From a virus (lineage: Duplodnaviria > Caudoviricetes), in the IMG/VR virus record IMGVR_UViG_3300009151_000077, positions 1 to 61,461 of that record: a stretch of 61,461 nt of DNA; one strand, written 5' to 3'. This document shows positions 21,568 through 55,416 of the stretch, one piece after another. Positions within the stretch are counted from its first letter, which is position 1; every line of letters starts with the position of its first letter. The position numbers were made by a program, and so were the translations under genes. The notes beneath the pieces were generated by a model. The model was not told the DNA's origin and ran no database searches. It was given only the letters and a program-made list of their open reading frames with translations.

Positions 21568-21575
21568 TAAATTTG
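21568..21575 (+). promoter_or_regulatory. -7 promoter element TAAATTTG
   Basis: TAnnTTTG upstream of 21580; another copy at 22402-22409. Confidence 0.45.
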
Positions 21576-21579
21576 TACT

Positions 21580-22404: not shown

Positions 22405-22413
22405 ATTTGTATT

Positions 22414-22815
22414 ATGGAAGTGCGATTCTTAATCGAAGAAGATTACGACAAACTATCTAAGTGGTGGAAGGATTGGAGATGGACAGCACCTCCAAAAGAT
22501 ATGCTACCTCAAGATGGTTTAGGTGGTTTAATGGTATCAAGTAATGGCAGAGAAGTATGTGCTGGATTTGTATACTTTACAAATTCAAAAACAGCTTGGA
22601 TTGAGTTTATAGTTTCTGACTTTAACTACAGAGAGAGTGACAGGAAGGAAGCTATTGAGTTTTTAATTAATTCACTTATAGATATTACAAAAGATGTTAA
22701 TAACTGTAAGTATATATACACATCTTTAAAGAGCCAAAGTCTTATTGAAAGATATAAGAGTTGTGGTTTTGTTGAGGGTAGTACGCATTGTACGGAAATG
22801 ATAAAAATAATATAA
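22414..22815 (+). CDS. GNAT-fold acetyltransferase-like protein
   Basis: EVRFL..DY, AWIEFIVSD.NYR and YKSCGF motifs; precedes the ejection proteins as in many podoviruses. Confidence 0.6.
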   Translation: MEVRFLIEEDYDKLSKWWKDWRWTAPPKDMLPQDGLGGLMVSSNGREVCAGFVYFTNSKTAWIEFIVSDFNYRESDRKEAIEFLINSLIDITKDVNNCKYIYTSLKSQSLIERYKSCGFVEGSTHCTEMIKII

Positions 22816-33900: not shown

Positions 33901-36576
33901 GATAACTTTATAACCAATGGAATAACTAGTAAATTAGAGGGTGCATTATCAACATACGAAGGAGAGCTTGGTTTAAAGAAAGAAATAAAATCTGGTAAAG
34001 TAGCTAGAGCATTGAAGCTTTACTTTAGCCCTAAAATAGGAAGATACTCTTCTGTAGAATTTACTCCACTACCACTTATGATAGAGAGGATGTTTAGTGG
34101 AGTTACAAGCGGAATAAGTGTAATGAAATCTATGGGACTTAATATTATTATTAATGGTGTTAATAAAGCAAATAATATTCATAACAAAATAATAAATGAA
34201 TACTACGATAAATTCATAAAGAATAGTAAAACATTTCATAATCCTGAAAATGTATACGAAAGAGGTATGCTTTCATTCTTAAAAAGAAATGTTACTGGAT
34301 CATTAGCAGAAATGAAGGCCGAAACAAATAGAAGGATTAATTTAATAACACAAAGTATTGATGTTTTAAGTAACTATGGAGATGAGTCTCAAAAAGCTAT
34401 GGCTGAAATTTATCAAAAATTATTTGATAAGTTAGGCGTAAGCACTGGAGACATAGACATAATTAACGCAAGAGCATCAAAAGAAAATAGAGAAGCTGTA
34501 GATTGGTGGATTAATGAGTGGTCTAAGCAATATAAAGATCTTGCTGATATAAGTTTATCTGTATATAATTATGACCTTGGAAGTGATTTAAACTATACTC
34601 CAGATCAATTCAAAACACTTAAGACAGAATCAATTGATAAAAACTTATTAGAGCGTAATTCATCGTTCTTAATAAGCATGGATAAAGTAACAGATAAGAA
34701 TAAGACAGGTGTTTTAATAGAATCAACTAGACCTACTAACATGGAGAAAGGTAGATATGTAAGTCTTGACTTTGATTCAAACAACTCAAACTCATTGAAG
34801 GGTGCATTAGTTGATATCAATACAGCCGCTGGAATAAGACAAGTTGATGGATTCTTAAATTCAGATCTATTAAATAAATTAATACCTACGGCTAAAGATA
34901 GAGATGCACTTAAAATAAGAGTAAACAGATACATAAGAAGAGCTAAAGGTAAAATAACCGTTCCTACAGATTTATATAAAGATGTTGATACTGTGCTTAA
35001 TTTTGCCGCGAGCCTTGGAGTTGGTAAGGCACTAGGTGGTGTACTACAGTCAGTAAAACAAACAATACCTATTGCACTAAGTACAGCTATAAACACTGGT
35101 AAGTTTAATGTAGCTGGAGTTGAATTCAATCAATGGCTTAATAAGACTGGAATGCCAATATCAAATAGAGGCATCGAGTCATTATCTACTATAGATTCTA
35201 TAGACAGAAGAATGGAAGCTAAAGGAACTAAGATTAAAGATTCATTAAAATGGATTGCAGAAAAACAACAGCTATATATAAAGTTTTTCTTGTCAAGACC
35301 AGATGTATTTATTGCAAGATCAGGTTTCGAGTCTTATTACTTACAGTATATGGGAGAGAAGTCTATAGACTGGGCCAATCATGAACCAAATCAAGACGCA
35401 TTAAACTATGCTCAATCTATGGTTGATAGACAGCAAAATATATCTGACCCAATGCTTGGCGGAGAGTTCTTAACATCTGAGGAATCAGTTAAAAGAATAG
35501 CTAAAAAAGTGTTATTCCCATTTGCTTCTTTTGCTTTAAATCAAAAGGCTAGATTAAATTCAGACTTAATAAATTTAGCATCTAAAACAACTAGCGAACA
35601 AGATAAAAAAATAGCAGCTAAATCAGCTATAGCTACGGTTGCTGAAATGGTTGCATACAGAGCTATGTCTGCTGCTATTGGTTATTCATTCTACAAGGCT
35701 GCTGAAATGGTAATCAATGGGTTTATAGGTGATGATGATGATGAAGATAAAGATCAAGATAAAAAATGGTGGATAAGTGCATCTAAGTTTCCAATTAAGT
35801 CAATGATAACTGACCTTGTATCTCCAGTACAGATGGCAGATCAATACGTTACTATGGGAACTGATTTCCTTTTATCTCTTGTTACTGGAGATACTAAGGC
35901 TGAGTTAGATGAGTCTGTTAAACAAGAAAATGAAATAAGAGCACTTAAGGATCAAGATCGAATGACTCCAAATCAAGAGGAAGACTTTAGACAAAAAGTA
36001 AAAGATAAGAGTACCTTTCAAGTTGGAAGTCAGTACGATCTTGTTAATGGATTTGGTATGGTTTCAATTGCATCAGACTTATACAAAAAGATATACTATG
36101 ACTATACTTTAGCTATGACTGGAGAGTTTGAGGATGAGTATAAAGGAAATATAACTACTAAGAAAATAAGACCAGTTGAGCAAGACTTAATGAAAAATAC
36201 TCTTATGTTCTCTGCATTATATGCCGCAGGTATTCTTCCAAAAGAATCAGATCAGATCGTTACAAAGGTTGTTAACATGGTTAAGAAGAACGCCATGTCA
36301 GAATCTGAGTATGAAAAATATAGTGAGTTCAAAACAGAATTTAAGCGTGAGCCAAGTCCATTTGAGATGGGAATGATTAAATCTGAAAAGAAGTACCAAT
36401 ATATATCTGACGATGTAAACTGGGTAAATACTAAGGGTGGATTAACATTAAGTCAAGGTAGAGAGTACGTTAAAATAATCAATACACTTGGTGAGGTTGA
36501 TAACAGTACTCTACTTGAGATAAAGGCTGGTAAGACAGCTGATCAAATAGTTAAGTCCATGAGGGCAAAGTTATAA
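24988..36576 (+). CDS. Giant polyvalent internal virion/ejection protein (3862 aa)
   Basis: Uninterrupted ORF with HExxH, GWY...DRW...QA.LW and kinase-like segments and a long helical C-terminus. Confidence 0.75.
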   Translation: MSDNNIPSPAEFYGKKKPSSTNNIPSPEEFYGTSLKKKGVSQSQLEEASTSSDISDNQGDQPSESLGDGDIYTYNGSTYKKRGNKWYKLSGGKYVPLTDGNVAQRVEILNSKAKKSVDRWANVTEENTNAKPKYRKDDYIDEVQNTDFNRTGDSRAIHEEALQMQREDIAQKEEEKSRNNNLLQNEGVYTGYPGKDGKIYKIIDNHWFEVDAPDPKFETLTQPGGENIYRKIEPKSDIDLYNKDQKWKPIDDQNRLKSLNKYFKKEASLDSMDQVFTNYDDSEEKKDNLYKIDDGEWKRLIPGASEYSTVLDENAINALNSRYNKNIEYKDKSSDKKQDLKLKFVDINSSLTGKTEEEAVRILEDKYGDYGFQFSQEGLFNIDRVRVKAANGKEITVEFDEKNSEEALKLRNFIEQNASNKSKYNLLNVIDKKVSAIGESYNDKYNISRAIPTDNSKTREEKEKYYNSEEYKKIFKSLSIDEMDEEVRRREREYPVTKGNIYNIYKQEKEKKYNLNDKKIKSLYEQLNIAENSGNKQLKKEVKSKIDTYLSDEVIKNQVMDYNIHLNDLVDSGKKLKTDIKQYELLVSDFNKSYASMSTEEVEKQKKILENKAEQLEIRRDNISTSFKNIEGSQKKINILAGEYISSKAKMGSFGGAIVNSFLTGAVKIIEPMVSASSSGYDVAFGVKESISPEEEKYYKDKGYSYEDIQNIKRNERYKSEKDKRREAVIGTIGSETTKEYISSKDNGFFEKALYGVAESAPAMLASLTGSSAASFGALASQSYSSIEDEMLGDEDFKTTTALDRSSIAIPYALLMGVLENYGLKNALKGSSLTSGILKGVISRSLKKMPSGAEKEVLQQIIDKEVKNVIAKGAIKIVNGALAEFETGATQSLVLDIGLKEIYNQYKDKTKNLTGGESFDTPDSFAEGASRVWEDGLMEAIGGVTISTFSNVSTGIVTGNISLYDEKDLKFLDEISTDTEFKKIIVANLKSDILKGKITKSEAEAKLQKMNEFSGIIQNMPDGLTSEQQIESINLIAEKKRLEKEIEGKDPSLVDAQKNRVSEINEQLKTISNNATKKTTEQQQGSQAEGGVSQYQGAGEGQQKDGNAEGGQREAKVNEADSGNSTIPSKVQEEVATYRAEEQAELLKAIPKIESYKVDGKLDKTLMPKTVLAKYNKIYNKYDKLISPLLEATTEIKIDKQSISTNTTEEVDRVKSLSIESEDGATFNLDGKKYDGPGLVVPVISMNTTIEDITPEMISKFVEEHADKIGDFGTVKVGIYKFPNSNQVSIDLNILAPESSRDQAIEFGKMSGQESLFDMSTFENVKTGATGENPMQFTPQQFKEIAKALKEGRMPNVFGTQEDTKNNSKESTAKSETNKADYKQNLVTAENSREVASRQKTPIRQRIAKTVSLVMRALPGVKIYLHNNEAEMHQALADSSGKSLEEVSKQIGNSAGSHISGEIHINMNTARENTLMHEAFHEAILRSGKSVKTIINFANGLKNIVLDKDVKAKLDDFVSMYNLDSNKIEDLEYIDEQIILENKRRIADGKLAMNAKESADYIDYITESTKSEEMLAELGSIMAEAETELTTTKLHQFLNLINRIAKSLRLPVILKSTATTQEAVDFINTMATSLRTGEEIVGDNEGDGKIRRQATEIMKGNESLEKFGLKKGKNITRKIGEALEARQRSKYGTIAQKDNSAEARKKISNWMVDEVKYFVEIMGDKSGKGWYGELYQKSLDRMSKIFPEMKTDQNARDLFTMLVAITSDGQKVMSNFKLAASAYDYYKKNGVMPTTLPGQRVASFEANLKRINELLIDYNGDVAAIKENLMEVKSIQEINKERKKEGLEALSTNWPVTFKAPFAASVFGPKLGMFFSNLSGNESYPTLDRWWSRTFNRYRGTLIPELKSGFTKKGEAIGLDRFKILLESPSMSNEEALLASKSYRDSYAAKGYKNGTEVEKAANTIYKNAFENLNDAPFTKNDRQFMYDTISDAVNKLNKQEYDLSIADVQAILWYFEKNLYKTLGVQAKIEGISYEDAANYTYDKWKEAGNKFNYEINQSEEGQSVEDEDIDDTEQPSKIKQQKTLQEELPLYKFGNEITTTIDQDKPISVLPLPERYMDGYEEATGKKLTQKDKQSFLYKLGRDHKYKKGGVYIDISNLENKDTVNGYVASSGEINIDPKTGRASLNISENISSPEESSIGKIIKTNLFKKKAGWNWTSDSDKSRYDKVETLVSVEIGSKHVYTLGFKSTTPIQLKNYSESKSEPRLRPTTKGQLFLGNYVGNITIRGKKHPVYDNVYSYDQNDYQTLDRLNYKYLKPEGLQSFYPEQRNATYKELKYNPSITLKDRLTDADQYIFDKLGIKNAEYVSGGVEASIYDIGAGKVIRISKNPSNFSNNLVNKKIEGVIPVYATGKVILPKRMFGLEDYTGQVIKTESREGGLKETEPLYYSILKKGDSLNVKEDLNAILNKLINYITKTLDKNIRFTDSIEDQLTILNEQELDEFKNNLDDKQLKDLNRIIEIKNNLKKIGVKERDSHTGNYVRNSNGDLEAVDLQYVRFDEGSEFKKTEEKNVIKLQKTPQETRMDNESESVFKKSLDRGTTWAKATQNALDYIQKSKWYQDANDIDREQKVRDFKQSKNQKLKKAPSVAKIMGTPKPNMVTVNEVVAFKDQLRKEAKAAREAKADLNSKRKSLGDAIKGMVKLGKLKATQAVTIIKRVSQVNLDNPVMVERLIDYASRVFERADYQERLDRAFSYRRAIRRLLKSDNQAQVIGMANQFTKIDPSMVENIDEYIAMADIVKNAVAPSRAKKFTLDKENYFDTDSAKGFDMVLRQAANIETVSNFVKDVLEKQEQKLKDELLATNNDLLESGVISADMTAKEIQEIVNAMKDPEYKMDSLEKEKYMKAYLSKRFESLASIITNIVYNPRNENPLTGEKMAIDEKDRAIILNLLKVDLSEMSNKDSIFIVEAMDNFITNGITSKLEGALSTYEGELGLKKEIKSGKVARALKLYFSPKIGRYSSVEFTPLPLMIERMFSGVTSGISVMKSMGLNIIINGVNKANNIHNKIINEYYDKFIKNSKTFHNPENVYERGMLSFLKRNVTGSLAEMKAETNRRINLITQSIDVLSNYGDESQKAMAEIYQKLFDKLGVSTGDIDIINARASKENREAVDWWINEWSKQYKDLADISLSVYNYDLGSDLNYTPDQFKTLKTESIDKNLLERNSSFLISMDKVTDKNKTGVLIESTRPTNMEKGRYVSLDFDSNNSNSLKGALVDINTAAGIRQVDGFLNSDLLNKLIPTAKDRDALKIRVNRYIRRAKGKITVPTDLYKDVDTVLNFAASLGVGKALGGVLQSVKQTIPIALSTAINTGKFNVAGVEFNQWLNKTGMPISNRGIESLSTIDSIDRRMEAKGTKIKDSLKWIAEKQQLYIKFFLSRPDVFIARSGFESYYLQYMGEKSIDWANHEPNQDALNYAQSMVDRQQNISDPMLGGEFLTSEESVKRIAKKVLFPFASFALNQKARLNSDLINLASKTTSEQDKKIAAKSAIATVAEMVAYRAMSAAIGYSFYKAAEMVINGFIGDDDDEDKDQDKKWWISASKFPIKSMITDLVSPVQMADQYVTMGTDFLLSLVTGDTKAELDESVKQENEIRALKDQDRMTPNQEEDFRQKVKDKSTFQVGSQYDLVNGFGMVSIASDLYKKIYYDYTLAMTGEFEDEYKGNITTKKIRPVEQDLMKNTLMFSALYAAGILPKESDQIVTKVVNMVKKNAMSESEYEKYSEFKTEFKREPSPFEMGMIKSEKKYQYISDDVNWVNTKGGLTLSQGREYVKIINTLGEVDNSTLLEIKAGKTADQIVKSMRAKL
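28208..28393 (+). CDS. Small basic phage protein overprinted in the +1 frame of the giant ORF (DUF6496-like)
   Basis: MPLKK...VSANIKEL...KQIVAIALSQA matches a recurrent small phage protein pattern; A-rich region before the ATG. Confidence 0.55.
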   Translation: MPLKKPQNNSKVAKQKAVSANIKELVKDNKKTGMQKGDNGKPRSMKQIVAIALSQAKYKKK

Positions 36577-45703: not shown

Positions 45704-45906
45704 AATTATTAGATTTAAATTATTACTAAACTATTTTTTTTTCATCTTACTCTCAAACCAGTAACCTATGAACATTGGCATTGATATCCATCCTAACAAT
45801 ACAGACCATACGATGTTGAACATCTGTCTACTTGTGCCAATGTTTGGCTCATGGACCACACCAAATGTAAACACGGTGGAGAATAAGTAATACAGTAACC
45901 ACATGA

Positions 45907-46233
45907 TTAAAAAGGTAAGTCCTCGTCAGCATTGTCACCAACAGGTGTCTGCTTAACTGATTCGATCATACCCTCTACTCTCCATGCCTCTAAGTTATTG
46001 AAGTACTTTCCGTTGTACTCCCTACCTCTGATTCTGAATGATACCTCAACCTCTTGACCCTCAGCAATCTGATCTAACTTGTCGCAGTTAGTCTGTGTCA
46101 GTTGGAATGCAATATCCTGTGGATACTTCTCGTCTGGAACATTTAATACAAACTCACGCTTTTGGAACTTGTCAGTAATCTGAACCGTGTCGTTGATCAC
46201 CTTGATCAACCCTTTCATTTTGAATTCACTCAT
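45907..46233 (-). CDS. Single-stranded DNA-binding protein (DUF3127 type)
   Basis: FQKREFV, YPQ.I.F, GRE...KYFN.L.AWR and acidic DLPF tail. Confidence 0.85.
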   Translation of the reverse strand: MSEFKMKGLIKVINDTVQITDKFQKREFVLNVPDEKYPQDIAFQLTQTNCDKLDQIAEGQEVEVSFRIRGREYNGKYFNNLEAWRVEGMIESVKQTPVGDNADEDLPF

Positions 46234-47000
46234 TTGTTTTTTGATTTTAGTAAATTATAATACTCATTTGCATACTTCTCGGCAGCAGCTAACCGTTTGT
46301 CCATCTTGACAATATCATCGCTCGTAAGCTTTACAGGAACTATCGTAGCTCGAAGTTCGTCGTCTAGGTCCTCCATGTAGTGCAGGCTGTCATGCTCATA
46401 GTCTGGTTTCAACGCCTCGGGGGTTGTCGTAAGAATAAATGCAACCTCACCGTCTGACCAGTCATCTCCCGTCATCTTAGTTAGCATGTACAAATAGTGT
46501 TTTACTTGCCACTCATAGCCACTATCGTATGCCTTCTTAATTGTTTTAGGGAACGTCTTCTTTGACCATGAGGACTTCAAGTCGATCACCTTCCTTCTTT
46601 CACAATCAACAACGTCTGGGTGACCACCCGATATGCCGTACTCAAGCTCGTAGAAGTTATCGAACGACTCCTGTTTATGGTAGTCCGTGAAGAAGATGCG
46701 GTTGTATATCTCGCATGACTCTGCCTCAACGTCCCATCCCTTCTGAGTCTTCGAGTTGGAGAAGTTCTCCTCGTACTCGTACACTTGCCTATCGATGATG
46801 TCCTCGATCAAGCCCTTGGCACCTGTGCTCAGCTCTACCGAATCCATCTTTAGCTCTAACTTGTCACGGTCCTTAGCCTGTGCCTCTGTTAGCTTGACCT
46901 TAGACTTAAGGTCGTTTAGCTTTGCCAATTGGATGTCAGTCAGTCCGTCATCTCCCAAGAACAATGGTGCACATGACGATGATCTAATTCTTAACTTCAT
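46230..47000 (-). CDS. YqaJ/lambda-exo-like PD-(D/E)XK exonuclease
   Basis: IRSSS, GHPD, IDLKSSW and YEWQVKHY motifs. Confidence 0.75.
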   Translation of the reverse strand: MKLRIRSSSCAPLFLGDDGLTDIQLAKLNDLKSKVKLTEAQAKDRDKLELKMDSVELSTGAKGLIEDIIDRQVYEYEENFSNSKTQKGWDVEAESCEIYNRIFFTDYHKQESFDNFYELEYGISGGHPDVVDCERRKVIDLKSSWSKKTFPKTIKKAYDSGYEWQVKHYLYMLTKMTGDDWSDGEVAFILTTTPEALKPDYEHDSLHYMEDLDDELRATIVPVKLTSDDIVKMDKRLAAAEKYANEYYNLLKSKNK

Positions 47001-47469
47001 TGAGTACCTCCATCTGTTCGTTAGTAATAGTGTAAGCTTTCTTGATCTTATCGATCGTTGTTCTGCCCGACTCTAAAGCCTCAACAGCCTTGGCAAGTTG
47101 TGCGTCTGATAGTGTAGGTAACTCCTTCTTAGGCAATGGTCTGGTGCTAAATCGCAACGCATCAACCAATCCTTGTGGACTCTTTACCTTCTCTGTCATC
47201 ATGACAATCTGCTTGCCTATGTATTCGTCGGGGTTAAAGGAATTAAAGAATGTCTCAAGACGCTTGAAGTTTGACCTATTGCATATCATTGGCTTGTCAA
47301 ATTCTTTTAGCTTGATGAACACCTTGTCCTCCTTGCCCATCTCTCCGACAAATACATCTTGATATATTCGATCGATCGTGACAATCTTTGGCTCGTATTT
47401 TCCATTCACTTCCAAGTCCCACGAGCCTAGGTACTTGTTGTCTTTCATTAGATTTCTCCAGTGTGCCAT
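46984..47469 (-). CDS. Putative ssDNA-binding/annealing protein
   Basis: HWR...YLGSWDL, N..N.K and ALR motifs; adjacent to exonuclease and SSB. Confidence 0.45.
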   Translation of the reverse strand: MAHWRNLMKDNKYLGSWDLEVNGKYEPKIVTIDRIYQDVFVGEMGKEDKVFIKLKEFDKPMICNRSNFKRLETFFNSFNPDEYIGKQIVMMTEKVKSPQGLVDALRFSTRPLPKKELPTLSDAQLAKAVEALESGRTTIDKIKKAYTITNEQMEVLNEVKN

Positions 47470-47491
47470 ATATATTTATTTAATTAGGGGG

Positions 47492-47890
47492 TTACAAAGA
47501 TTGTAATATTTCTTTTAAACGCAATGAATAATCATCTTTTTTTATCAACAATTTGCGTTTTCGCTCTGTTAAGTACTCTAAATTGTACAGAGTTGGCTCT
47601 AGATGTGCATAGTGCATCAGCATTATTATCTTCTCTAGCTTGTTGTGGCATACATCTACGTTTACCTTATAACATCCTGCTAGCCATCCGATGCTTTCGA
47701 ATATGTACATCTGCTCGTCTGTAATCTTTTCGTACTTGTCGTTTGATGTCATGGTGTTCATGACCTCAGTCCGATTGTCCTTATCGAATACCTCTATCTT
47801 AACTCCGTGGTCTATGTACCAAGAGCTGTGACCCGTTCGGTATACTTTGTTCTCCGATTCTAGGTCTTTCCATGCTTTATTTTGGGACAT
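47492..47890 (-). CDS. Hypothetical protein
   Basis: ORF in chain. Confidence 0.55.
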   Translation of the reverse strand: MSQNKAWKDLESENKVYRTGHSSWYIDHGVKIEVFDKDNRTEVMNTMTSNDKYEKITDEQMYIFESIGWLAGCYKVNVDVCHNKLEKIIMLMHYAHLEPTLYNLEYLTERKRKLLIKKDDYSLRLKEILQSL

Positions 47891-48263
47891 ATCGAAGCAT
47901 TTTATTTTCTACTATAAAGTACTCTGTGTACTTATTTTCTTGGTATATTACAGATACTCTGTAGTCACCTGTTTTTAGTCTTGACGTGATTAGTATGTAC
48001 ACTTTATTTGTGTTAAACTGATCGACCCAATTCATGAATATAACTACGTCTGATTCTCTAACTATGCTTTTCTTTGTGGTGTCGTAGTCATTTTCATCTA
48101 ACATTTTAAACGTTTTGTGTATGGCTTCTTCCCTAGTCTTTGCCGACGTGTAGTAAACCTTGTCTCCACCGCTGTATTGTATTGTGTCAAATCCAGTAAA
48201 GACTTGAGCGAATGATGTTACCGACATTCCGAGGAATAACATCGTGATTTTAATTGTTTTCAT
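47877..48263 (-). CDS. Secreted/periplasmic hypothetical protein
   Basis: Sec signal MKTIKITMLFLGMSVTSFA|Q with the Gln +1 typical of Bacteroidota. Confidence 0.6.
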   Translation of the reverse strand: MKTIKITMLFLGMSVTSFAQVFTGFDTIQYSGGDKVYYTSAKTREEAIHKTFKMLDENDYDTTKKSIVRESDVVIFMNWVDQFNTNKVYILITSRLKTGDYRVSVIYQENKYTEYFIVENKMLRYVPK

Positions 48264-48586
48264 ATAATTTAAATTTAAGTTAGTAATTCAGACATCGCCT
48301 CAAACATCGTAGCGACTACGAATACGGATGATATCATTAGTGTAGCTATAAATATTATCATTACCCATCTGATGTTTATAAAAAACCTAGGTAGTAAACA
48401 TGACAGCAGTAGCACCGACATGGAAATTAAAAAATTAGTCATCGTTCAAGTGTTTTAAAAATTTATCCCTCTCCTCTCTGCTATTCGCAGTCCTTACGTG
48501 GACCCAACATATATAGAGGACCCTCCTCTGTATATAATACACACAGTTTCCAAAGAAATCTATGCCTGCAATACATCTGTAATGTT

Positions 48587-48787
48587 TCATTTTGTTTGTT
48601 GTTTATAGTCAATAATAAATCCGATAGCAACGATTATGTTCATGCCCAATGATGCTAGTATCTCCTTGATGTCGGAGTAGACATGTATGCTCAAGTGTAT
48701 GTGACCCACCATCCAAAATGGTATCGATAAGTTCTGGCTCACCCATACAATAGCGTACCTTATAAATCTAGTTCTCATGCATGTCAT
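48587..48787 (-). CDS. Small membrane protein
   Basis: Two hydrophobic segments (WVSQNLSIPFWMVGH). Confidence 0.5.
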   Translation of the reverse strand: MTCMRTRFIRYAIVWVSQNLSIPFWMVGHIHLSIHVYSDIKEILASLGMNIIVAIGFIIDYKQQTK

Positions 48788-48953
48788 GTATTACTATCTG
48801 TATAACCGATAAGTCGATCGATGTTACACTCGTGTCGGGGTCAACGAAGAACATGTTGAAGTAGTGCATAGCATCGTCCTTGTTGTCTGCCCATACCCTG
48901 TCGACGTAGTCGTCAGTACCCGATAGGGTGTAATTAATTCTGAATGATTTCAT
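48768..48953 (-). CDS. Small early hypothetical protein
   Basis: ORF in chain. Confidence 0.5.
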   Translation of the reverse strand: MKSFRINYTLSGTDDYVDRVWADNKDDAMHYFNMFFVDPDTSVTSIDLSVIQIVIHDMHEN

Positions 48954-49080
48954 AGCTTGCAGATATATATAACGTTATTACTATCGCCAAATTTTCTCAA
49001 GGCTTCAGCGTAACTCCTTGCGTCTATGTTCACTCCCGAACATAGGTTGTCTGATATTGTGTAGCAGATGTGGTATCTTG

Positions 49081-49344
49081 TCATAGCTCTAGTTCTATAT
49101 GGTTAATAACTTGGTATTCGTAGTCAACGTCGTTGTTGTATGGATATGCCTGTATGATATACTGCAACCATTCACGTTCGTTCGTGAATTCATACTTCGG
49201 CATGTAGTCTAAGTGCACGTCAAATTTTCCCTCAGAAAATTCAATTGTTTGCCACTCGTCTAGTTCTTCGAATTGTATGCAGTGTGTTTCGACTCCGTGA
49301 GTCAGCTCTACATATCGGATGATAGGATTGATTTTTGCTTTCAT
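49081..49344 (-). CDS. Small early hypothetical protein
   Basis: ORF in chain. Confidence 0.55.
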   Translation of the reverse strand: MKAKINPIIRYVELTHGVETHCIQFEELDEWQTIEFSEGKFDVHLDYMPKYEFTNEREWLQYIIQAYPYNNDVDYEYQVINHIELEL

Positions 49345-49692
49345 AGTGTTGGTTTTTGTTAAGTTGTGTTAAAAAATGTTGGTTAATGTTGGTTTAATGT
49401 TGATTTGAAATTTTGTAAGCCTTGGTACGACTAGGTTAGTGTTAGAATGTTAATTTTTACCCTTTAGTAGAGAAAAAAAAATAAAATATATATATATATA
49501 GTATATAGTATTACTATATACTGTAATTATTTTAATTTCACGCTAGTTTTAGCTTTAAAATCAACATTTCAACACAAAGTCAATGATAGTAAGGGTTTCG
49601 TGAAAAAAAATCAACACTAAATCAACACGAGTTAACACTAGTATTTGTTAAACGATTGATTGATAGGTTGTTAGCTGATTTGATTTCAACAC
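49345..49692. repeat. Mirrored iteron-like array around an AT-rich palindrome; putative replication origin
   Basis: About 8 TGTT(A/G) units on the left, about 6 (T/C)AACA units on the right, central (TA)n and AGTATATAGTA-T-TACTATATACT. Confidence 0.55.
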
Positions 49693-49698
49693 TCACAA

Positions 49699-50055
49699 TC
49701 ACAGGTTGATTGTCGAGCCGTCGTTCAGATTAAAGATTGCTTTTTGGTTGTTCTGTAGTCCAACGAAGACAGCCTTGCTCTCATTGTCATATACCCTTGA
49801 GATATCTAGATAGAGCCATCCATCGTCGACCCATCCACCAAGGAAGTTCTCGTCGACTGATAGCTCTAGACCTTTCTCTGCGATGAATTGATTGATTGTC
49901 TGTTCGATCGATTGGCGGGTCTCGTCTATTGGTGTATGAGAGCCTCCCTTTAGGCTGACCACATAGCCAGATGTTGGGGCTGTTCCTAAGGCTAAGTTAA
50001 ATGTAGCTCCACCATTCTGAATGATGGAGTCTACGAAGTCGTGTAGGTTGTTCAT
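49699..50055 (-). CDS. Early protein of the GATF...GY.V...LGGW...YLDIS...NQKAIF family (possible SAM-lyase-like fold)
   Basis: Motif pattern; similar to a segment of the giant protein. Confidence 0.55.
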   Translation of the reverse strand: MNNLHDFVDSIIQNGGATFNLALGTAPTSGYVVSLKGGSHTPIDETRQSIEQTINQFIAEKGLELSVDENFLGGWVDDGWLYLDISRVYDNESKAVFVGLQNNQKAIFNLNDGSTINL

Positions 50056-50066
50056 GTTTATAGGTT

Positions 50067-50297
50067 TTAAAGGTTAATATTTTCATCATTTAGTTCAAGA
50101 GATTTCTCGTAGTCAGAAAGAAATTTCTCGTAATCAGAAAGTAATTTTATTAGATTTGTCGTTTGCAATTCATTGAATGTATTACTTAATGTCTTAATAA
50201 ATCTATCAGCGTTATTTTTTCTTACTGCTCTTTCAAATGCTTCAAGCACCTCTCCGTTGTCAAATTGAAATAGATTTTTTCTTTCTTGGTTGTTCAT
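50067..50297 (-). CDS. Small early hypothetical protein
   Basis: Preceded by the repeated leader. Confidence 0.65.
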   Translation of the reverse strand: MNNQERKNLFQFDNGEVLEAFERAVRKNNADRFIKTLSNTFNELQTTNLIKLLSDYEKFLSDYEKSLELNDENINL

Positions 50298-50324
50298 AAG
50301 TTCTAGGTTTTAAAGATTAGTTAA

Positions 50325-50474
50325 TTATTTTAATTCTTCAGCGTTCCAAATTCTTCGATGTTCATTGGTTTGAAATAACATACCAATGTAATCGGTCGTC
50401 TTGTCGAATGGAATATCTCCACCGCAAAAATTATTATTCCTTACCAGAATTTCGTGGGCTTGTTCTTGTGTCAT
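50325..50474 (-). CDS. Small early hypothetical protein (49 aa)
   Basis: Read manually (MTQEQAHEIL...); preceded by the repeated leader. Confidence 0.6.
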   Translation of the reverse strand: MTQEQAHEILVRNNNFCGGDIPFDKTTDYIGMLFQTNEHRRIWNAEELK

Positions 50475-50485
50475 AAGTTCTAGGT

Positions 50486-50710
50486 TTAAAAGGTTAGTGT
50501 ATCAATCTCATCGTAAAGTTCTACATACTCTAGTGGGAATCTTTCCTTTAGTGATTGTATTAATTTTGCATGGCTGTATACCTCATAGCCATCTCGCTCT
50601 GCGTTAACGATTGGTTGGATGACCTCTGCGATTTGGCTATCGTCTAGTGTTGTTACTAGGTAGAAGTCCTCTTCTGACCATGCTGTTGTGCTGATTCTAA
50701 TTACTCTCAT
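50486..50710 (-). CDS. Small early hypothetical protein
   Basis: Preceded by the repeated leader. Confidence 0.65.
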   Translation of the reverse strand: MRVIRISTTAWSEEDFYLVTTLDDSQIAEVIQPIVNAERDGYEVYSHAKLIQSLKERFPLEYVELYDEIDTLTF

Positions 50711-50722
50711 GTTTTCTAGGTT

Positions 50723-50929
50723 TTATTGGTTAATATATCTCTCGTTAAATTGTTCTTGAGTCACCTCAGTATTGTCGATGCCCAAGTTGTATGCTATCTC
50801 TGCAACGTATTCTTTGTTATCGGGATTCAATATGCTATCGGGCCAATATCCTGTGCATGTTTCGGTTTCTTTTACTATAGCACATCCGCTTAATATTATT
50901 GTTGCTATTAAAATTAATATCGCTTTCAT
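50723..50929 (-). CDS. Small early lipoprotein
   Basis: MKAILILIATIILSG|C lipobox; preceded by the repeated leader. Confidence 0.65.
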   Translation of the reverse strand: MKAILILIATIILSGCAIVKETETCTGYWPDSILNPDNKEYVAEIAYNLGIDNTEVTQEQFNERYINQ

Positions 50930-50941
50930 AGGTTCTAGGTT

Positions 50942-51199
50942 TTAAAGTTCGTACTCGTTTCCATCCTCATCATAATACATATCGTCATCAATCTCTTCCC
51001 ACTCTGTGTAGTAATATTCTTCTTGCTCATATGCTTCGTTAAGTATGAATTCATCAGATAGACCTTCCATACCACCACGGCTTCTAAGCCAATCAATTAA
51101 GTGTTGCTCCTCAGAGAAGTATAATTCTCCATCTCCAACAACAAATCCTTCGTTCATACCACGTCCCGTAGCATCACATTTTCTTGCATATCTTTCCAT
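50942..51199 (-). CDS. Small, highly acidic early protein
   Basis: Asp/Glu/Tyr-rich C-terminus; preceded by the repeated leader. Confidence 0.7.
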   Translation of the reverse strand: MERYARKCDATGRGMNEGFVVGDGELYFSEEQHLIDWLRSRGGMEGLSDEFILNEAYEQEEYYYTEWEEIDDDMYYDEDGNEYEL

Positions 51200-51434
51200 A
51201 AGTTCTAAGTTTTAGTTGGTTTAAAAAAAAGATTTTGTTGACACTTCCTCGTGAGTGTATTCCGATACAAAATCTAATAAAAATCTTAAGCAATCGATAG
51301 GTGGTTTCGAATGTGTACTTCTTCCTTTGCTAGCCAACACATTCTAGATACTCTTGGGTTTGTTGCATTAGTATCCATAGCAATAAATAATGATGGTACC
51401 ATGCCCCATCACTCGGCATTTTTTACTTGGTTAG

Positions 51435-51959
51435 TTACATTTTAAGCATTGTGGTCTCTGTCCCATCGTCTCCATGTTCTGGAAATTCTCTATTAAATTT
51501 ATCTTGATGTGTTTCCCAAAATCTAATGTCAGACAACCAAGATATTGAGAACTTTTCTAGTCCTGCTTCAATGCACATGTCGTAAACTTTCTCCGTATCT
51601 CTAGCTGTAGGGAAGTTCTTATCGAAGGAATACATGTCATTTAATACTTCGTTACGTCCTGTGTCATCTCCTACTACATAACCTCCACCACTTGTAGTTA
51701 CTAGTTCAACGGCATGTCGATTAGTTCTTGCCCATGCATATCTTTTATTAGACATGTCTTCTTTTGCCTTAGCTGTTGAGCCTTGTATAAAGCAAGCCTT
51801 AAAGGTTTTTAGTAACTCTACCTCTGTCATGGTAAAGTCTACGAGGATTGTCTCGTGCTCTAGCACACACTCTAACGTTACTCTGTTACCTACTATCTCG
51901 TGTACCTTGTGGTCACGACCTTGCATTTTTCTGTGGTTTACATTTACGATTGCTCTCAT
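51435..51959 (-). CDS. Early hypothetical protein (174 aa)
   Basis: Preceded by the repeated leader. Confidence 0.7.
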   Translation of the reverse strand: MRAIVNVNHRKMQGRDHKVHEIVGNRVTLECVLEHETILVDFTMTEVELLKTFKACFIQGSTAKAKEDMSNKRYAWARTNRHAVELVTTSGGGYVVGDDTGRNEVLNDMYSFDKNFPTARDTEKVYDMCIEAGLEKFSISWLSDIRFWETHQDKFNREFPEHGDDGTETTMLKM

Positions 51960-51983
51960 TGTTTCTAAGTTTTAATTGGTTAA

Positions 51984-52157
51984 TTAATCTTGACAAGCAT
52001 ACAACACTTGAATCAAGCTATCGTATAAGAACATCCCGTTGTATGTCTCAAAGCCAAATCGATTGATAGTGATGTCGCTGTCATTTAATTGTAGTGTGGT
52101 GTAAGTTCCCGTGCGTTGACCATAGCTGTCTTCAACGCATACATAGTAAGTTTTCAT
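51984..52157 (-). CDS. Small early protein (57 aa) downstream of hammerhead C
   Basis: Read manually (MKTYYVCVEDSYGQ...YACQD). Confidence 0.65.
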   Translation of the reverse strand: MKTYYVCVEDSYGQRTGTYTTLQLNDSDITINRFGFETYNGMFLYDSLIQVLYACQD

Positions 52158-52173
52158 GGTTTCTAATTTATTT

Positions 52174-52225
52174 GGTTAAGACGGCACGAATGCCGTTTCG
52201 ATTATTTAAATCTCATCAGTTAACC
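52174..52225 (-). ncRNA. Type I hammerhead ribozyme (HH-C)
   Basis: GGUUAA CUGAUGA GAUU-UAAAU-AAUC GAAA CGGCA-UUCG-UGCCG UC|UUAACC; complete core, three stems, cleavage between 52180 and 52179. Confidence 0.92.
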
Positions 52226-52228
52226 TTG

Positions 52229-52402
52229 TTACCATCCTCCATATGGCTCTACCTCTAAGTCGTTAAAATTCATTATTGAATCAGATAGTGACCACTCGTA
52301 CCATGCGACAAGCACATCGTTACCTAATACCTCAACTACTTCTCCTACTCCGTGACCATAGTTGAATTCTCCTACTATGTCTCCTACTTTTAATACGTTC
52401 AT
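52229..52402 (-). CDS. Small early protein (57 aa), SH3/KOW-like
   Basis: Read manually (MNVLKVGDIV...GVGEVVEV...VLVAW); stop is 3 nt before HH-C. Confidence 0.65.
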   Translation of the reverse strand: MNVLKVGDIVGEFNYGHGVGEVVEVLGNDVLVAWYEWSLSDSIMNFNDLEVEPYGGW

Positions 52403-52414
52403 AATTTCTAAGTT

Positions 52415-52597
52415 TTATTGGTTAATAAAATCTTGTGGGCTCATCTTGATCAAGTCCTCTTCTCTGAAGTTCTTAAGGTCTTGTAACTTGCTTCTATCTA
52501 CATCTATTATCCCGTGTACAGGGTGTTTGATGTCGTTGATGCCTACGAAGTTGATGTTACGAATCAACTGCTCTCTGATTTCAAGTTCTCTTGTCAT
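52415..52597 (-). CDS. Small early hypothetical protein (60 aa)
   Basis: Preceded by the leader; its last codons (INQ*) are the next leader. Confidence 0.65.
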   Translation of the reverse strand: MTRELEIREQLIRNINFVGINDIKHPVHGIIDVDRSKLQDLKNFREEDLIKMSPQDFINQ

Positions 52598-52624
52598 AAT
52601 TTCTAAGTTTTATATGGTTAATGA

Positions 52625-52732
52625 TTATCTCCAACCTCTTACACGTAATCGGTTAGTTCTTACTAATGTGCCCTCAAAGAAGAAGCCCCAAATCTCGAAT
52701 GCTCCCTCGATTCTAATGATTTTGCTAGTCAT
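52625..52732 (-). CDS. Small early peptide (35 aa) downstream of hammerhead B
   Basis: Read manually (MTSKIIRIEGAFEIWGFFFEGTLVRTNRLRVRGWR). Confidence 0.6.
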   Translation of the reverse strand: MTSKIIRIEGAFEIWGFFFEGTLVRTNRLRVRGWR

Positions 52733-52750
52733 AATTTCTAGGTTTTTATT

Positions 52751-52807
52751 GGTTAAGACAGCACCTTGCGAGTGCTGTTTCGTCTCATAAAGACTCATCA
52801 GTTAACC
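52751..52807 (-). ncRNA. Type I hammerhead ribozyme (HH-B)
   Basis: GGUUAA CUGAUGA GUCU-UUAUG-AGAC GAAA CAGCAC-UCGCAAG-GUGCUG UC|UUAACC; cleavage between 52757 and 52756. Confidence 0.92.
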
Positions 52808-52811
52808 TGTG

Positions 52812-52916
52812 TTAAAATGAACATGAAGTTCCGTGCACGATAGCATTGTAAACGACTACTGCTACTACTAACATTAAGCCTAAAGCAAATGTTAAGGGGG
52901 CTGTTAAGTTTTTCAT
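52812..52916 (-). CDS. 34-aa single-TM peptide flanked by hammerheads A and B
   Basis: Read manually (MKNLTAPLTFALGLMLVVAVVVYNAIVHGTSCSF). Confidence 0.6.
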   Translation of the reverse strand: MKNLTAPLTFALGLMLVVAVVVYNAIVHGTSCSF

Positions 52917-52933
52917 TGTGTTAGGTATTTGTT

Positions 52934-52983
52934 GGTTAAGACGCCTCACGGCGTTTCGGTCATTAAGACCTCATCAGTTAACC
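52934..52983 (-). ncRNA. Type I hammerhead ribozyme (HH-A)
   Basis: GGUUAA CUGAUGA GGUC-UUAAU-GACC GAAA CGCC-GUGA-GGCG UC|UUAACC; cleavage between 52940 and 52939. Confidence 0.92.
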
Positions 52984-53200
52984 TTGTTGCAAGCCACGTG
53001 AAACTGCTTGCCCTCTATTAATCCCTACTAGTGTTGTTATTCTAGTGGTTCCGACACACAACCACCCGAGTAGTGTATTGTGTGCCCTAGGTATGTCCTA
53101 GTCTTGTGCTATCTTATTGACCTCCTCACCGATTGCAGTCTCAAATAGTATCGTATGTCAAATTGTCATGGTGACCTCTCGTCAGCTGAGCCGTTGCCCT
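52984..53200 (-). ncRNA. Putative structured non-coding leader of the early transcript
   Basis: No ORF; at least four hairpins (52989-53011, 53027-53046, 53053-53086, 53087-53101). Confidence 0.4.
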
Positions 53201-53203
53201 CTG

Positions 53204-53211
53204 CAATACTA
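53204..53211 (-). promoter_or_regulatory. Candidate early promoter -7 element (TAGTATTG)
   Basis: One mismatch to TAnnTTTG, with A-tracts upstream; no clear -33 TTTG. Confidence 0.3.
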
Positions 53212-53717
53212 ATGCTAAAACTTTGAATAAGTAACACTTTTTTTGAAAGTTTTTTTTGCTTGACATGTTAAAACAGCGGATTATTTGTTGCATTGCTTTG
53301 ATAATCAACACGTTACACGACGAAAAAAAAGATGAAAAAAGTTTGTTTTTTTTTGTTACGTGATGATATAACCTCCCCTATGAAGACATGAATTGCTATC
53401 AGATTGGCTTTCCTGTTGGCTCGATTGGTCGCTCGATTGGTCGGTCGGTCGGTCACCTTGTCAGTCATTCTATTTAACATAATGCAAATTATATGACAGC
53501 CTCATCGAGCAGTCGAGCGGACGGCAGGCTTGTTACCTGTGTAATATACAGCACAGGAGGGCGGACGGGGTGACCATGGAAAAGCTAGAAAATCCGACCT
53601 CAATTTCTGAAAACGGAGACCCCCCCCTTCGATTGGAAAGCGTTTCCCCCTAGCGAGCGATCACGTCAGATGGGGGTATTACCCAAAACCTATGAATATC
53701 TAACCCCAAATTTTTAA

Positions 53718-53745
53718 TATCTTTGTAAAATAAATAGTATATTTG
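53718..53745 (+). promoter_or_regulatory. Tandem -7 elements TATCTTTG and TATATTTG
   Basis: Two TAnnTTTG copies at the start of the + strand gene block. Confidence 0.6.
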
Positions 53746-53749
53746 TATC

Positions 53750-53887
53750 ATGAAGATATACATAGAAAATAGGTTACCATACGGCTTAAATTTAGGAATA
53801 GAATTATTCCAACCTGACGATCTATTTGACGAGTATGAGCTTGAGATTAATTTGTTAATAATAAAAATAGTATTAGTATGGCACTAA
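53750..53887 (+). CDS. Small hypothetical protein (45 aa)
   Basis: Read manually (MKIYIENRLPYGLNLGIE...VWH). Confidence 0.5.
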   Translation: MKIYIENRLPYGLNLGIELFQPDDLFDEYELEINLLIIKIVLVWH

Positions 53888-55416
53888 AGTTTGGAAGAAA
53901 GACTGGAATTACATCATATGTTGATGGTAAAGGTCAGGTACATTATACCGAAGAAGAGTATGATGCATATCAAAACGCAGTATCTGCGGAGAAGCAAAGA
54001 AGAAGTGATTATGACGCAAGTGTTTCTAGCTACCAAAGTGCTCTTGATTTATATGAGAACGGTCCTAAAAAAACTCCATCGGCTACCGAAGGTATTAAAC
54101 TTAAAGGAAAGTCAAAAGGCAAAGATATTGCTTTTGAAGAGGGTCAGGCTATAAGTCCAAAGGAACAGAATAGAATTATGGATGAGCGTATAAAATCTGG
54201 AGAATATGTAAAACTAAGTGATAAATCAATAGACCCTACCACTAGGTCTTATATGTCTCAGATGACAGGTGTTTTTGGAAAAATGGATGCTGCTGATTAT
54301 GATTCAGAATCTTACGTACCAAAAGGAACAAAGGTAAATAAATGGTCAGATGTATATGGTGAAAACTTTAATCCTGTTGAGTTTCACAAAGCAGGAAAAG
54401 AGGGAAACCTGGATGAGTATATGAAGAAAAATAACCTTAAAGAAGGACAATTTTTCATGCCAAATATTTCACCTCAACGTAAGTATAAAACTCCAAAAGC
54501 TCCTGGAAAGTATGTAGAGAATCCTCCTATTAAGGACATAAGTCCAGACGCTGTTGACTGGAAGCCAATGGCTAATATGCCTGCTAAGAAAGCTTTTATA
54601 ACTCAAAAAACAGGTAATCTTAAAGGAAGTCCTACTGCTCCAGAAGAGTGGTCTTCTCCCATTTTGAAAGAGAGATCTAAAACAAAGGGTACTAGATTAT
54701 ATCAAGAAAAAAATGGTTTGCGTGCTGGAATGACTAATGCGGCTACTGTAGGTAAATCTAAACCTAATAAATTACAATATAACAGAGAAGCAAAAACATC
54801 AGCCGCGTACTTTGGAAATAATGTATTTGAAGGTGAAGTAACAGGTAAGAATGCTTCGGAGTTAAAAGACATGAAAAAGGCTACAAAGCAGACACGTAAT
54901 GAAGCTTTAGCTCGTGGCAGTTTTAATAGTGCTATTGAGCTTCAAAAGGATGTTAAGCAATTAAGACGTGCTGGAGAATATGCTAATAAAGGTGGTATTG
55001 CAAAACAATACGGAACTGGTAAAATAATTGAAGGTCAAGACTCAAAGTTAAAATACTTTACTCCTGAATTAACAAAAGGAGTTAAAAACGAAAGAGGTGT
55101 TGTTGAGCGTGATCCTGGAGCTATGGCTGGTTACAAAGAAGCTCAAGCATACAAAAAACAGCAAGTTTTTTCAGAAGGAATGTCAAACTTTAAAAGCTCA
55201 ACTGATAATATGGCGAATGCAAATAGTATGAGAAAGAAACAAGAATCATTATCTGGAACTGATTCATTTATTAATCCTACAAGAGCCATAAAGATGGAAA
55301 CAAAAGCTTCAAATTCTGGCATGACCAATAGAGAGGCAGGTAAAATTGCAAGATCACAAAGAAAAGAAGAGATAAATATCATGAAAGCTCTTGATAAAAA
55401 GATGAAAATAAACTAA
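53878..55416 (+). CDS. Lys-rich, probably disordered hypothetical protein (512 aa)
   Basis: Long ORF followed by a terminator; no recognisable domain. Confidence 0.7.
   Translation: MALKFGRKTGITSYVDGKGQVHYTEEEYDAYQNAVSAEKQRRSDYDASVSSYQSALDLYENGPKKTPSATEGIKLKGKSKGKDIAFEEGQAISPKEQNRIMDERIKSGEYVKLSDKSIDPTTRSYMSQMTGVFGKMDAADYDSESYVPKGTKVNKWSDVYGENFNPVEFHKAGKEGNLDEYMKKNNLKEGQFFMPNISPQRKYKTPKAPGKYVENPPIKDISPDAVDWKPMANMPAKKAFITQKTGNLKGSPTAPEEWSSPILKERSKTKGTRLYQEKNGLRAGMTNAATVGKSKPNKLQYNREAKTSAAYFGNNVFEGEVTGKNASELKDMKKATKQTRNEALARGSFNSAIELQKDVKQLRRAGEYANKGGIAKQYGTGKIIEGQDSKLKYFTPELTKGVKNERGVVERDPGAMAGYKEAQAYKKQQVFSEGMSNFKSSTDNMANANSMRKKQESLSGTDSFINPTRAIKMETKASNSGMTNREAGKIARSQRKEEINIMKALDKKMKIN

Follow-up and report, generated by a model that had tools for sequence, protein, structure and literature searches.

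The window analysed here, i.e. the whole 61,461-bp stretch of DNA, is the entire virus record IMGVR_UViG_3300009151_000077. On its minus strand, from 52939 down to 50053, it carries an array of 12 small open reading frames (ORFs) of 34-174 aa, which runs from a divergent intergenic region at ~53.1-53.9 kb and which, to judge from its position, is probably an early operon (Table 1). When the minus strand is read from 53100 to 50000, each of the 12 ORFs is preceded by a variant of a ~25-nt leader, TTAACCAAT-AAAACYTAGAAMYT-ATG, in agreement with a first-pass annotation that had reported about 12 such copies before the small ORFs. The A of the ATG lies at 52916, 52732, 52597, 52402, 52157, 51959, 51199, 50929, 50710, 50474, 50297 and 50055, respectively. 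The first (52939-52914) and last (50077-50053) copies are degenerate, and a 13th, decayed copy stands 5′ of a doubtful 29-aa ORF at 51419.

Searching the window with the complete 26-mer at up to three mismatches gave two matches, against 0.00 expected. The 17-nt core of the leader, AAAACYTAGAAMYTATG, gave nine matches at up to two mismatches, all of them on the minus strand between 50295 and 52746; shuffled sequences contained 0.26 such matches on average and two at most, and none of 100 shuffles reached nine. At up to three mismatches there were 10 core matches in the array and four weak ones elsewhere. The first-pass annotation had taken the leader as a translation start and/or a microhomology for gene-cassette shuffling, and had regarded equal frequency of the motif before late genes as an argument against its proposal. 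Instead, the motif is confined to this block: it was found upstream of none of the 58 other ORFs of the genome, structural genes included, whose upstream regions are loosely A/T-rich.

The leader contains no inverted repeat, and it is locked to the ATG with zero variation in spacing. It does contain three staggered stop codons covering all frames, that is, TAA at -22, TAA at -15 and TAG at -8 relative to the ATG, and all three are used. Two ORFs, of 60 and 68 aa, had been noted to end in INQ with the stop inside the following leader, which is indeed the case, and the two unrelated proteins share this ending because their last codons and the stop are leader sequence.

Table 1. Features of the array in the window, listed in the direction of the minus strand. 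Families of small ORFs are numbered with F; G numbers denote related virus records.
Feature	Position	Strand	Remarks
Hammerhead a, type I	52934..52983	-	Cut between 52940 and 52939; core CUGAUGA/GAAA/GUC plus three stems
Leader 1, degenerate, after hammerhead, including ATG	52914..52939	-	
ORF 34 aa, hydrophobic, F10	52812..52916	-	Homologues in relatives
Hammerhead b, type I	52751..52807	-	Cut between 52757 and 52756; RF00008 26.5 bits vs cut-off 48.5, E=0.021
Leader 2, after hammerhead	52730..52756	-	Core 0 mismatches
ORF 35 aa, Arg-rich C-terminus, F2	52625..52732	-	80-86% aa identity in relatives; dN/dS 0.16
Leader 3	52595..52621	-	Core 0 mismatches
ORF 60 aa, F4	52415..52597	-	Ends INQ and stop within leader 4
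Leader 4	52400..52425	-	Exact match to first-pass consensus
ORF 57 aa, F27	52229..52402	-	Found in G004 too
Hammerhead c, type I	52174..52225	-	Cut between 52180 and 52179; RF00163 22.7 bits vs cut-off 34, E=0.057
Leader 5, after hammerhead	52155..52179	-	
ORF 57 aa, F20	51984..52157	-	84% aa identity in G001, there without hammerhead
Leader 6	51957..51983	-	Core 1 mismatch
ORF 174 aa	51435..51959	-	First 50 aa match F18 (116-118 aa) of relatives; remainder does not
Non-coding cassette, ~210 nt, inside array	51214..51420	-	93.7% identical over 221 nt to G003
Leader 7	51197..51223	-	Core 0 mismatches
ORF 85 aa, F0, framework gene	50942..51199	-	In 7 genomes; dN/dS 0.12
Leader 8	50927..50950	-	Core 0 mismatches; 5′ part encodes tail of upstream ORF
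ORF 68 aa, lipoprotein-like, F11	50723..50929	-	Ends INQ and stop; other slot in relatives
Leader 9	50708..50733	-	Core match
ORF 74 aa, F5	50486..50710	-	dN/dS 0.19 over 15 pairs
Leader 10	50472..50497	-	Core match
ORF 49 aa, F28	50325..50474	-	90% nt identity to G004 vs genome-pair median 67%
Leader 11	50295..50324	-	Core match
ORF 76 aa	50067..50297	-	No relative found
Leader 12, degenerate	50053..50077	-	
ORF 118 aa, F6, last leader-bearing gene	49699..50055	-	PHROG 17808 (function unknown); ~70% aa identity in relatives

Hammerhead ribozymes at the leader

Three copies of the leader were said to carry a hammerhead ribozyme upstream, and three hammerheads were found, with the core CUGAUGA/GAAA/GUC and the cut at GUC|UUAACC (Table 1). 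Their stem I is open and their stems II and III are closed, i.e. the type I architecture of Rfam family RF00163 in clan CL00010. Since the cut falls directly 5′ of UUAACC, the first six bases of the leader are at the same time the 3′ strand of stem I. The three window copies were aligned with nine copies from related viruses (n=12; relatives are described below). The catalytic core CUGANGA ... GAAA ... NUH is present in 3/3 window copies and in all 12 aligned ones, with one extra base between A9 and stem II in three of the relatives' copies. Standard pairs fill all 180 pair cells, and both sides have changed in 7 of the 15 pairs; the observed covariation score was reached by none of 500 shuffles, and slid controls were 21-41% paired. 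Stems II and III covary, and stem I (GGUUAA/UUAACC) is invariant in the 12 aligned hammerheads. An Rfam search of the whole window at gathering score returned nothing.

Because stem I of these hammerheads includes the leader, at three junctions the leader must be transcribed from upstream, and predicted self-cleavage would leave an mRNA with a 5′-OH end whose whole 5′ untranslated region (UTR), of 22-24 nt, is the leader. The ribozyme-bounded pieces measure 183 nt (52939-52757) and 577 nt (52756-52180). Hammerhead presence differs between orthologous junctions, as the 57-aa gene at 51984-52157 has one here and none in relative G001. The earlier suggestion that ribozyme-less leaders are relics of ribozyme-flanked units is plausible, although the change may have gone either way.

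The combination of hammerhead and UUAACC is found well beyond these viruses. A pattern fixing this stem I and core, in which stem I is invariant by construction, was scanned across viral contigs and gave at least 149 copies (at least 140 distinct) in at least 129 stretches. Among the matches listed (140 distinct), 4/4 positions are paired in stem II in 129 and in stem III in 134, with 31 different 4-mers in stem II and 49 in stem III, and UUAACC is followed by AA in 119. In the same set, an ATG was present in the stretch read for 138 matches; the first one lies 18-24 nt from the cut in 109 of these, and in 133 it opens a frame free of stops over the codons available (up to ~15). Five other lineages have arrays whose first two to five genes each carry a hammerhead plus UUAACC. 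The leader that follows UUAACC is lineage-specific there and similar within each genome, and in three of the five (G011, G012 and G013) look-alike leaders without hammerhead stand at other array genes. That each lineage has a leader of its own is more in keeping with recombination homogenising the copies than with a single sequence optimal everywhere. The hammerhead class is very common, poorly catalogued and missed by Rfam cut-offs.

Of 20 early-side starts in the cultured Flavobacterium phage elemoA, 3 have TAAAA at -15 to -11 together with a different core. Inspection of this phage by eye (NC_055852.1, L138 5071-5150, minus strand) also showed what looks like a type III hammerhead (hairpin, CUGAAGA, hairpin, GAAAC), ending ~20 nt before the first gene of an array of small ORFs; Rfam gave no report for it at E up to 0.1. 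Lone exact matches to the leader core in 84 distinct unrelated viral contigs, 42 of which look like gene starts, were near a rough chance estimate, and no conclusion was drawn from them.

Related viruses and gene exchange at the leader

Relatives of the window were found by an exact-pattern scan of viral contigs followed by searches of the whole records. Ten related virus records (G001-G010) carry clustered copies of the motif on one strand. Seven of them have full or partial arrays with 5-12 core copies each: the fullest hold 10-12 copies on one strand within 3-3.7 kb, and the partial or more divergent ones 5-7, while three distant or fragmentary records have 2-3. The reversed-pattern control gave zero matches in the relatives, except two in G007. 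No cultured phage with this leader was found, the motif counts in elemoA and in the uncultured record MW202828.1 being like those of the reversed control. An RNA motif downstream of the array was matched in two relatives (DUF805b of Rfam, gathering score 35.6 bits; G002, L127 327-359, 38.9 bits, and G003, L128 531-563, 38.4 bits), and no such match was obtained in the window.

Most families of small ORFs have dN/dS values of 0.10-0.25 at dS values of 0.35-0.95, which shows that the small ORFs are real genes whose proteins are conserved by purifying selection. Of 90 leader copies from nine genomes spanning that divergence, 75-90 retain positions -14 to -11 and -8 to -4; positions -14, -13, -12 and -11 are A in 82, 84, 75 and 82 copies, respectively. 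At 88 junctions in nine genomes, the stop of the upstream ORF lies at -15 in 24 cases and at -8 in 13; it falls between -17 and -6 at 49 junctions and within 30 nt at 68.

The arrays share a framework order (F10, F2 ... F4 ... F0 ... F5 ... F6), around which gene order varies. That is, the lipoprotein gene F11 follows F0 in the window and F2 in G001-G004, F41 precedes F0 in G004 and follows it in G002, and F27, F28, F39 and others come and go between genomes. G010 has three tandem F16 paralogues, though the cassette proteins are mostly unrelated to one another, which means that simple gene duplication fails to explain the array. Pairwise comparison placed the limits of homology at the leader. 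Of 40 pairs with the same upstream gene followed by different downstream genes, 31 lose homology between -11 and +7 of the ATG; for the same downstream gene preceded by different upstream elements (97 pairs, some with a hammerhead as upstream element in both genomes), homology sets in between -31 and -12 in 74. The clearest case is F39 of G002 and G004, where 57 nt are identical up to leader position -4 and the genes thereafter are unrelated. Identity also varies from cassette to cassette in a mosaic: F0 of the window is 93% identical to that of G003, the median for these two genomes being 77%, and, between G002 and G004, identity is 96% for F39 and F15 against 67% for F0. Furthermore, the last three bases of the leader track the downstream gene (identity 0.695 versus a background of 0.517), and the leaders have a weak genome-specific flavour (0 of 1000 permutations reached the observed value).

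Breakpoints between relatives therefore coincide with the leader, although breakpoints lying off it had been put forward as grounds for discarding the first-pass proposal, and the suggested role as a microhomology for cassette shuffling is borne out to the extent that homology between genomes starts and stops inside the leader. The comparison indicates that related phages have swapped genes at this sequence, and the mosaicism among relatives is bounded by the junctions. One exchange point lies elsewhere: since the 174-aa protein shares its first 50 residues only (82-90% identical to F18 of relatives), it points to an exchange inside the gene and not at the leader.

A non-coding stretch also takes part. 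The ~210 nt at 51214-51420 behave as a cassette because they lie between different genes in G003, where the last ~160 nt are nearly identical and the neighbours differ. This cassette has a T-run at its end, directly before the next leader, and holds a near-match to the host -7 box described below, with one extra T. As a candidate structured RNA it was rejected, its fold being no better than that of shuffles (z=0.29). Among the proteins of the array, Pfam and PHROGs gave nothing beyond PHROG 17808 for F6 and a weak match of the signal region of F11 to PHROG 1119 (named Cor superinfection exclusion; E=5e-6), and no close homologue of the 118-aa F6 protein was found among GenBank phages.

Host and surrounding sequence

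PHROG matches in the window include a terminase, a portal, virion proteins, an endolysin, and GroEL-like and GroES-like proteins, and identify a replication block on the minus strand. Among cultured phages, the terminase matches records of Flavobacterium (68), Cellulophaga (15), Tenacibaculum (2) and Maribacter (1) phages at no more than 44% identity, the value for Flavobacterium phage elemoA being 44%; the nearest terminase, at 68%, is that of MW202828.1. The sequence TAnnTTTG is the -7 promoter box of Bacteroidota, and it stands 5′ of many plus-strand genes of the window. On account of the terminase relatives and these boxes, the host is very probably a member of the Flavobacteriaceae. A blastn search of the 49-54 kb region against GenBank phages gave zero matches, and the phage GroEL returned no Flavobacteriaceae genome from bacterial genome contigs. 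A GroEL 74% identical to it is encoded on L139, an 11.7-kb contig that was binned with a Bacteriovoracaceae metagenome-assembled genome but probably derives from a related phage.

At several plus-strand genes (21568-21582, 22402-22416 and 136-151) the TAnnTTTG box lies merely 4-5 nt 5′ of the ATG, suggesting that their messages are leaderless or nearly so. The box is absent from 45869-54127 of the minus strand, i.e. upstream of and within the array. Five genomes share a conserved block, here at ~53200-53330, that precedes the first hammerhead by ~250-400 nt and is a possible early promoter of non-canonical type. The divergent intergenic region at 53390-53470 contains short tandem-like repeats (CGACC and CAATCGA units), with similar runs at the same place in relatives, and may be an origin or packaging site. 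Past the last leader-bearing gene, a 350-nt gap (49345-49700) holds several AACAC/CAACAC(T) words; such a word also stands directly before the ATG of the next gene, in the window and in relatives, and may signal that the next transcription class begins there. On the plus strand, a 3862-aa ORF (24988-36576) recalls by its size and place the giant virion-borne proteins of podoviruses. It may be a virion RNA polymerase, but it had no Pfam, PHROG or PDB sequence match. The 512-aa ORF next to the array (53878-55416) had no relatives among viral contigs.

Proposed function, rival explanations and known analogues

How Bacteroidota phages translate many small early genes without Shine-Dalgarno sequences is poorly known, and so is the way in which their fast-changing early 'accessory' genes are exchanged. 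On balance, and with confidence only a little above even, we favour the view that the leader is a stop/restart signal acting in all three frames without a Shine-Dalgarno sequence, derived from a hammerhead-made 5′ UTR and doubling as the crossover point of cassettes. It would join the cistrons of a single polycistronic operon, probably an early one. The stops at -22, -15 and -8 would end the upstream ORF in any frame, the A-run would present an unpaired, A-rich start in the register favoured in Bacteroidota, and the next AUG would be used by re-initiation or by fresh ribosome entry. At three junctions the hammerhead would cut just 5′ of the leader, giving an mRNA with a 5′-OH end. Because the same sequence stands at every junction, we propose it as the crossover site: recombination at leaders, whether homologous or by short homology, would exchange, move, duplicate or delete single-gene cassettes, both within one genome and between co-infecting relatives. 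The leader most likely descended from the widespread hammerhead-made 5′ UTR and would then have spread to junctions without ribozyme.

The translational part of this proposal can be compared with the start regions of Flavobacterium johnsoniae, in which, according to Baez et al. (2019; PMC6847099), adenines are enriched at -14 to -11 and mutation of these positions cut a GFP reporter by 60-90%. The leader has adenines in this very register (chiefly -12 and -13 in that work). The first-pass idea of a Shine-Dalgarno-independent Bacteroidota start fits this register at A-14 to A-11; the G of the leader at -6 goes against the preference for A given in the same source. At the hammerhead junctions the leader would have to recruit ribosomes afresh, because after cutting it is the whole 5′ UTR; at other junctions, the stop-to-start distance of 5-12 nt would suit re-initiation. 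Pairing of AGAA (-7 to -4) with the rRNA tail seemed unlikely, given the geometry of a Shine-Dalgarno interaction. The function of the leader in translation, and any strength it may have as a start, are inferred.

Several observations weigh against this interpretation. None of the hammerheads reaches an Rfam gathering score, the best values being 22.7-29.2 bits for RF00163 (cut-off 34) and 26.5 bits for RF00008 (cut-off 48.5). G is found at -6 in 84 of 90 copies and position -3 is split between A (45/90) and C (45/90), where A is preferred at both in PMC6847099; these positions are partly fixed by the choice of copies, as the copy-selection rule partly fixed -8 to -1 of the 90-copy logo. In elemoA a different core occupies the same register, at only 3 of 20 starts. 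The A-run is the feature in common and is set by the host, and the -10 to -4 core (CYTAGAA) is specific to the lineage; since the host ribosome has no general need for this core, something besides generic initiation must keep it, which would be either homogenising recombination or a lineage-specific factor. A sequence-specific factor reading the core is thus a serious rival. Finally, the leader makes up all the intergenic DNA, and selection by itself would leave viable recombinants joined at gene borders, so that the coincidence of breakpoints with the leader is no proof that its homology drives exchange; a causal role of the leader in exchange would be a further step.

The most substantial rival takes CYUAGAA plus AUG as an operator in the mRNA for a sequence-specific protein or RNase, of phage or host, that would switch the early set jointly or cut the message where no ribozyme is present. 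It would resemble the RegA repressor and the RegB nuclease of phage T4, which act on early messages. The information content of the motif goes far beyond the need of an A-rich start, the motif is confined to one temporal-looking block in which hammerheads and plain leaders fill equivalent slots, and the core varies by lineage, as expected from co-evolution with a lineage-specific factor. Homogenisation through recombination explains lineage-specific cores equally, however, and among the array ORFs neither an RNA-binding nor a nuclease domain was detected with Pfam and PHROGs and no candidate factor was identified, so that we regard an operator as rather unlikely. The 5′-OH end itself may instead be the signal: the hammerhead-made end UUAACCAA, 18-24 nt before the AUG, would be a dedicated 5′-end entry signal for Bacteroidota ribosomes that was copied to every junction of the early operon. 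As every ribozyme of the operon has the same stem I, released ends would fit the next ribozyme, and the 183-nt and 577-nt pieces might re-join or circularise as RNA. This idea is a good deal more speculative and we hold it to be improbable; if true, cassettes would be defined at both RNA and DNA level by one 6-nt word.

The leader could also be a scar without present function, left by serial duplication of an ancestral unit of hammerhead, leader and gene. The hammerhead-UUAACC module is widespread and often tandem, and copies within one genome resemble each other, but a neutral scar would decay, whereas the leader positions listed above are kept in 75-90 of 90 copies at flanking-gene dS values of 0.35-0.95, which makes this explanation very improbable. 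We give least credence of all to each leader being a promoter used by an RNA polymerase or sigma factor specific to the phage, which would make a leaderless or nearly leaderless mRNA for each small gene. The absence of TAnnTTTG boxes from the minus strand at 45869-54127, against many plus-strand genes with a box, means that the early block may use another polymerase; boxes 4-5 nt from the ATG of some late genes make leaderless messages plausible in this phage, and a 3862-aa ORF of unknown function is present. The three hammerheads nevertheless form only if transcription reads through from upstream, and the leader is part of their stem I, which places it inside the RNA at those junctions. Moreover, upstream ORFs end in the leader at 49 of 88 junctions, which is typical operon packing, and the ATG-locked motif, invariant in spacing, has no resemblance to a host promoter.

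If the stop/restart reading is right, the locus offers one answer to both of the questions raised above, namely a portable joint that stops translation in any frame, restarts it and supplies homology for swapping, and that is linked to a common hammerhead class with a fixed distance from cut to AUG. The leader could then serve as a ready-made expression joint for Bacteroidota.

Parts of the arrangement have precedents. In the account of prophage and phage transcripts by Perreault et al. (2011; PMC3088659), several hammerheads bracket single genes of varying identity, and an early-gene transcript of haloviruses HF1 and HF2 has a hammerhead variant 13 nt upstream of the start codon of its first ORF, with a mapped 5′ end within 3 nt of the cleavage site. 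Compared with those hammerheads as described there, the 3′ strand of stem I is here the beginning of the leader, the leader recurs at nine ribozyme-less junctions, the distance from cut to AUG is tightly set (18-24 nt in 109 of 138 among the matches listed), and the class scores below the Rfam gathering cut-offs. A search of the full-text literature outside subscription journals returned no paper on a hammerhead-linked shared leader in Bacteroidota phages. Integron gene cassettes have an imperfect inverted-repeat attC site each and go with a tyrosine-recombinase integrase; the leader is not an inverted repeat, and no integrase was found among 41 larger ORFs scanned against PHROGs or 21 scanned against Pfam, the remaining ORFs of the genome lying outside the scan. 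With Bacteroidota start regions as described in PMC6847099 the leader shares the A-run at -14 to -11, A-rich sequence upstream, the lack of a Shine-Dalgarno sequence and the lack of a second AUG nearby, but it is unlike the loosely A-rich host starts in repeating one 17-nt word, almost unchanged and with G at -6, before 12 genes in a row.

Two further repeats of phage genomes come closer. The start-associated sequence (SAS) of Cluster K mycobacteriophages is, according to Pope et al. (2011; PMC3203893), a 13-bp asymmetric repeat. Each genome has 11-19 copies, all in one orientation, a few bases ahead of start codons and only in the non-structural half of the genome, sometimes with upstream stops inside the repeat; its function is given as unproven and a role in translation is suggested. 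Like the SAS in that description, the leader is a short, one-orientation repeat just before the starts of non-structural genes only. Unlike it, the leader has no AGGAG Shine-Dalgarno core and no likeness to the 13-bp consensus, so that the sequences are unrelated, and it is locked to the ATG, stops translation in all three frames and is linked to the cleavage site of a ribozyme. The promoter-early stem-loop (PeSL) cassettes of T4-type phages, according to Arbiol et al. (2010; PMC2839356), are repeated small regulatory elements between small non-essential early ORFs in hyperplastic regions; copies recombine to give insertions, deletions and replacements between related phages, and each consists of a sigma-70-type promoter and a terminator hairpin, so that they work on DNA and transcription. 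The leader likewise bounds insertions, deletions and replacements between relatives. In contrast to PeSL, it has no host-type promoter (no TAnnTTTG on the minus strand, 45869-54127) and no terminator stem-loop, and lies inside one transcript as a joint between stop and start. Comeau and co-workers reportedly also dealt with the PeSL cassettes of T4-type phages in 2014. The leader would thus work like SAS and PeSL as an analogue of both and a member of neither, blending features of hammerhead brackets, SAS and PeSL.

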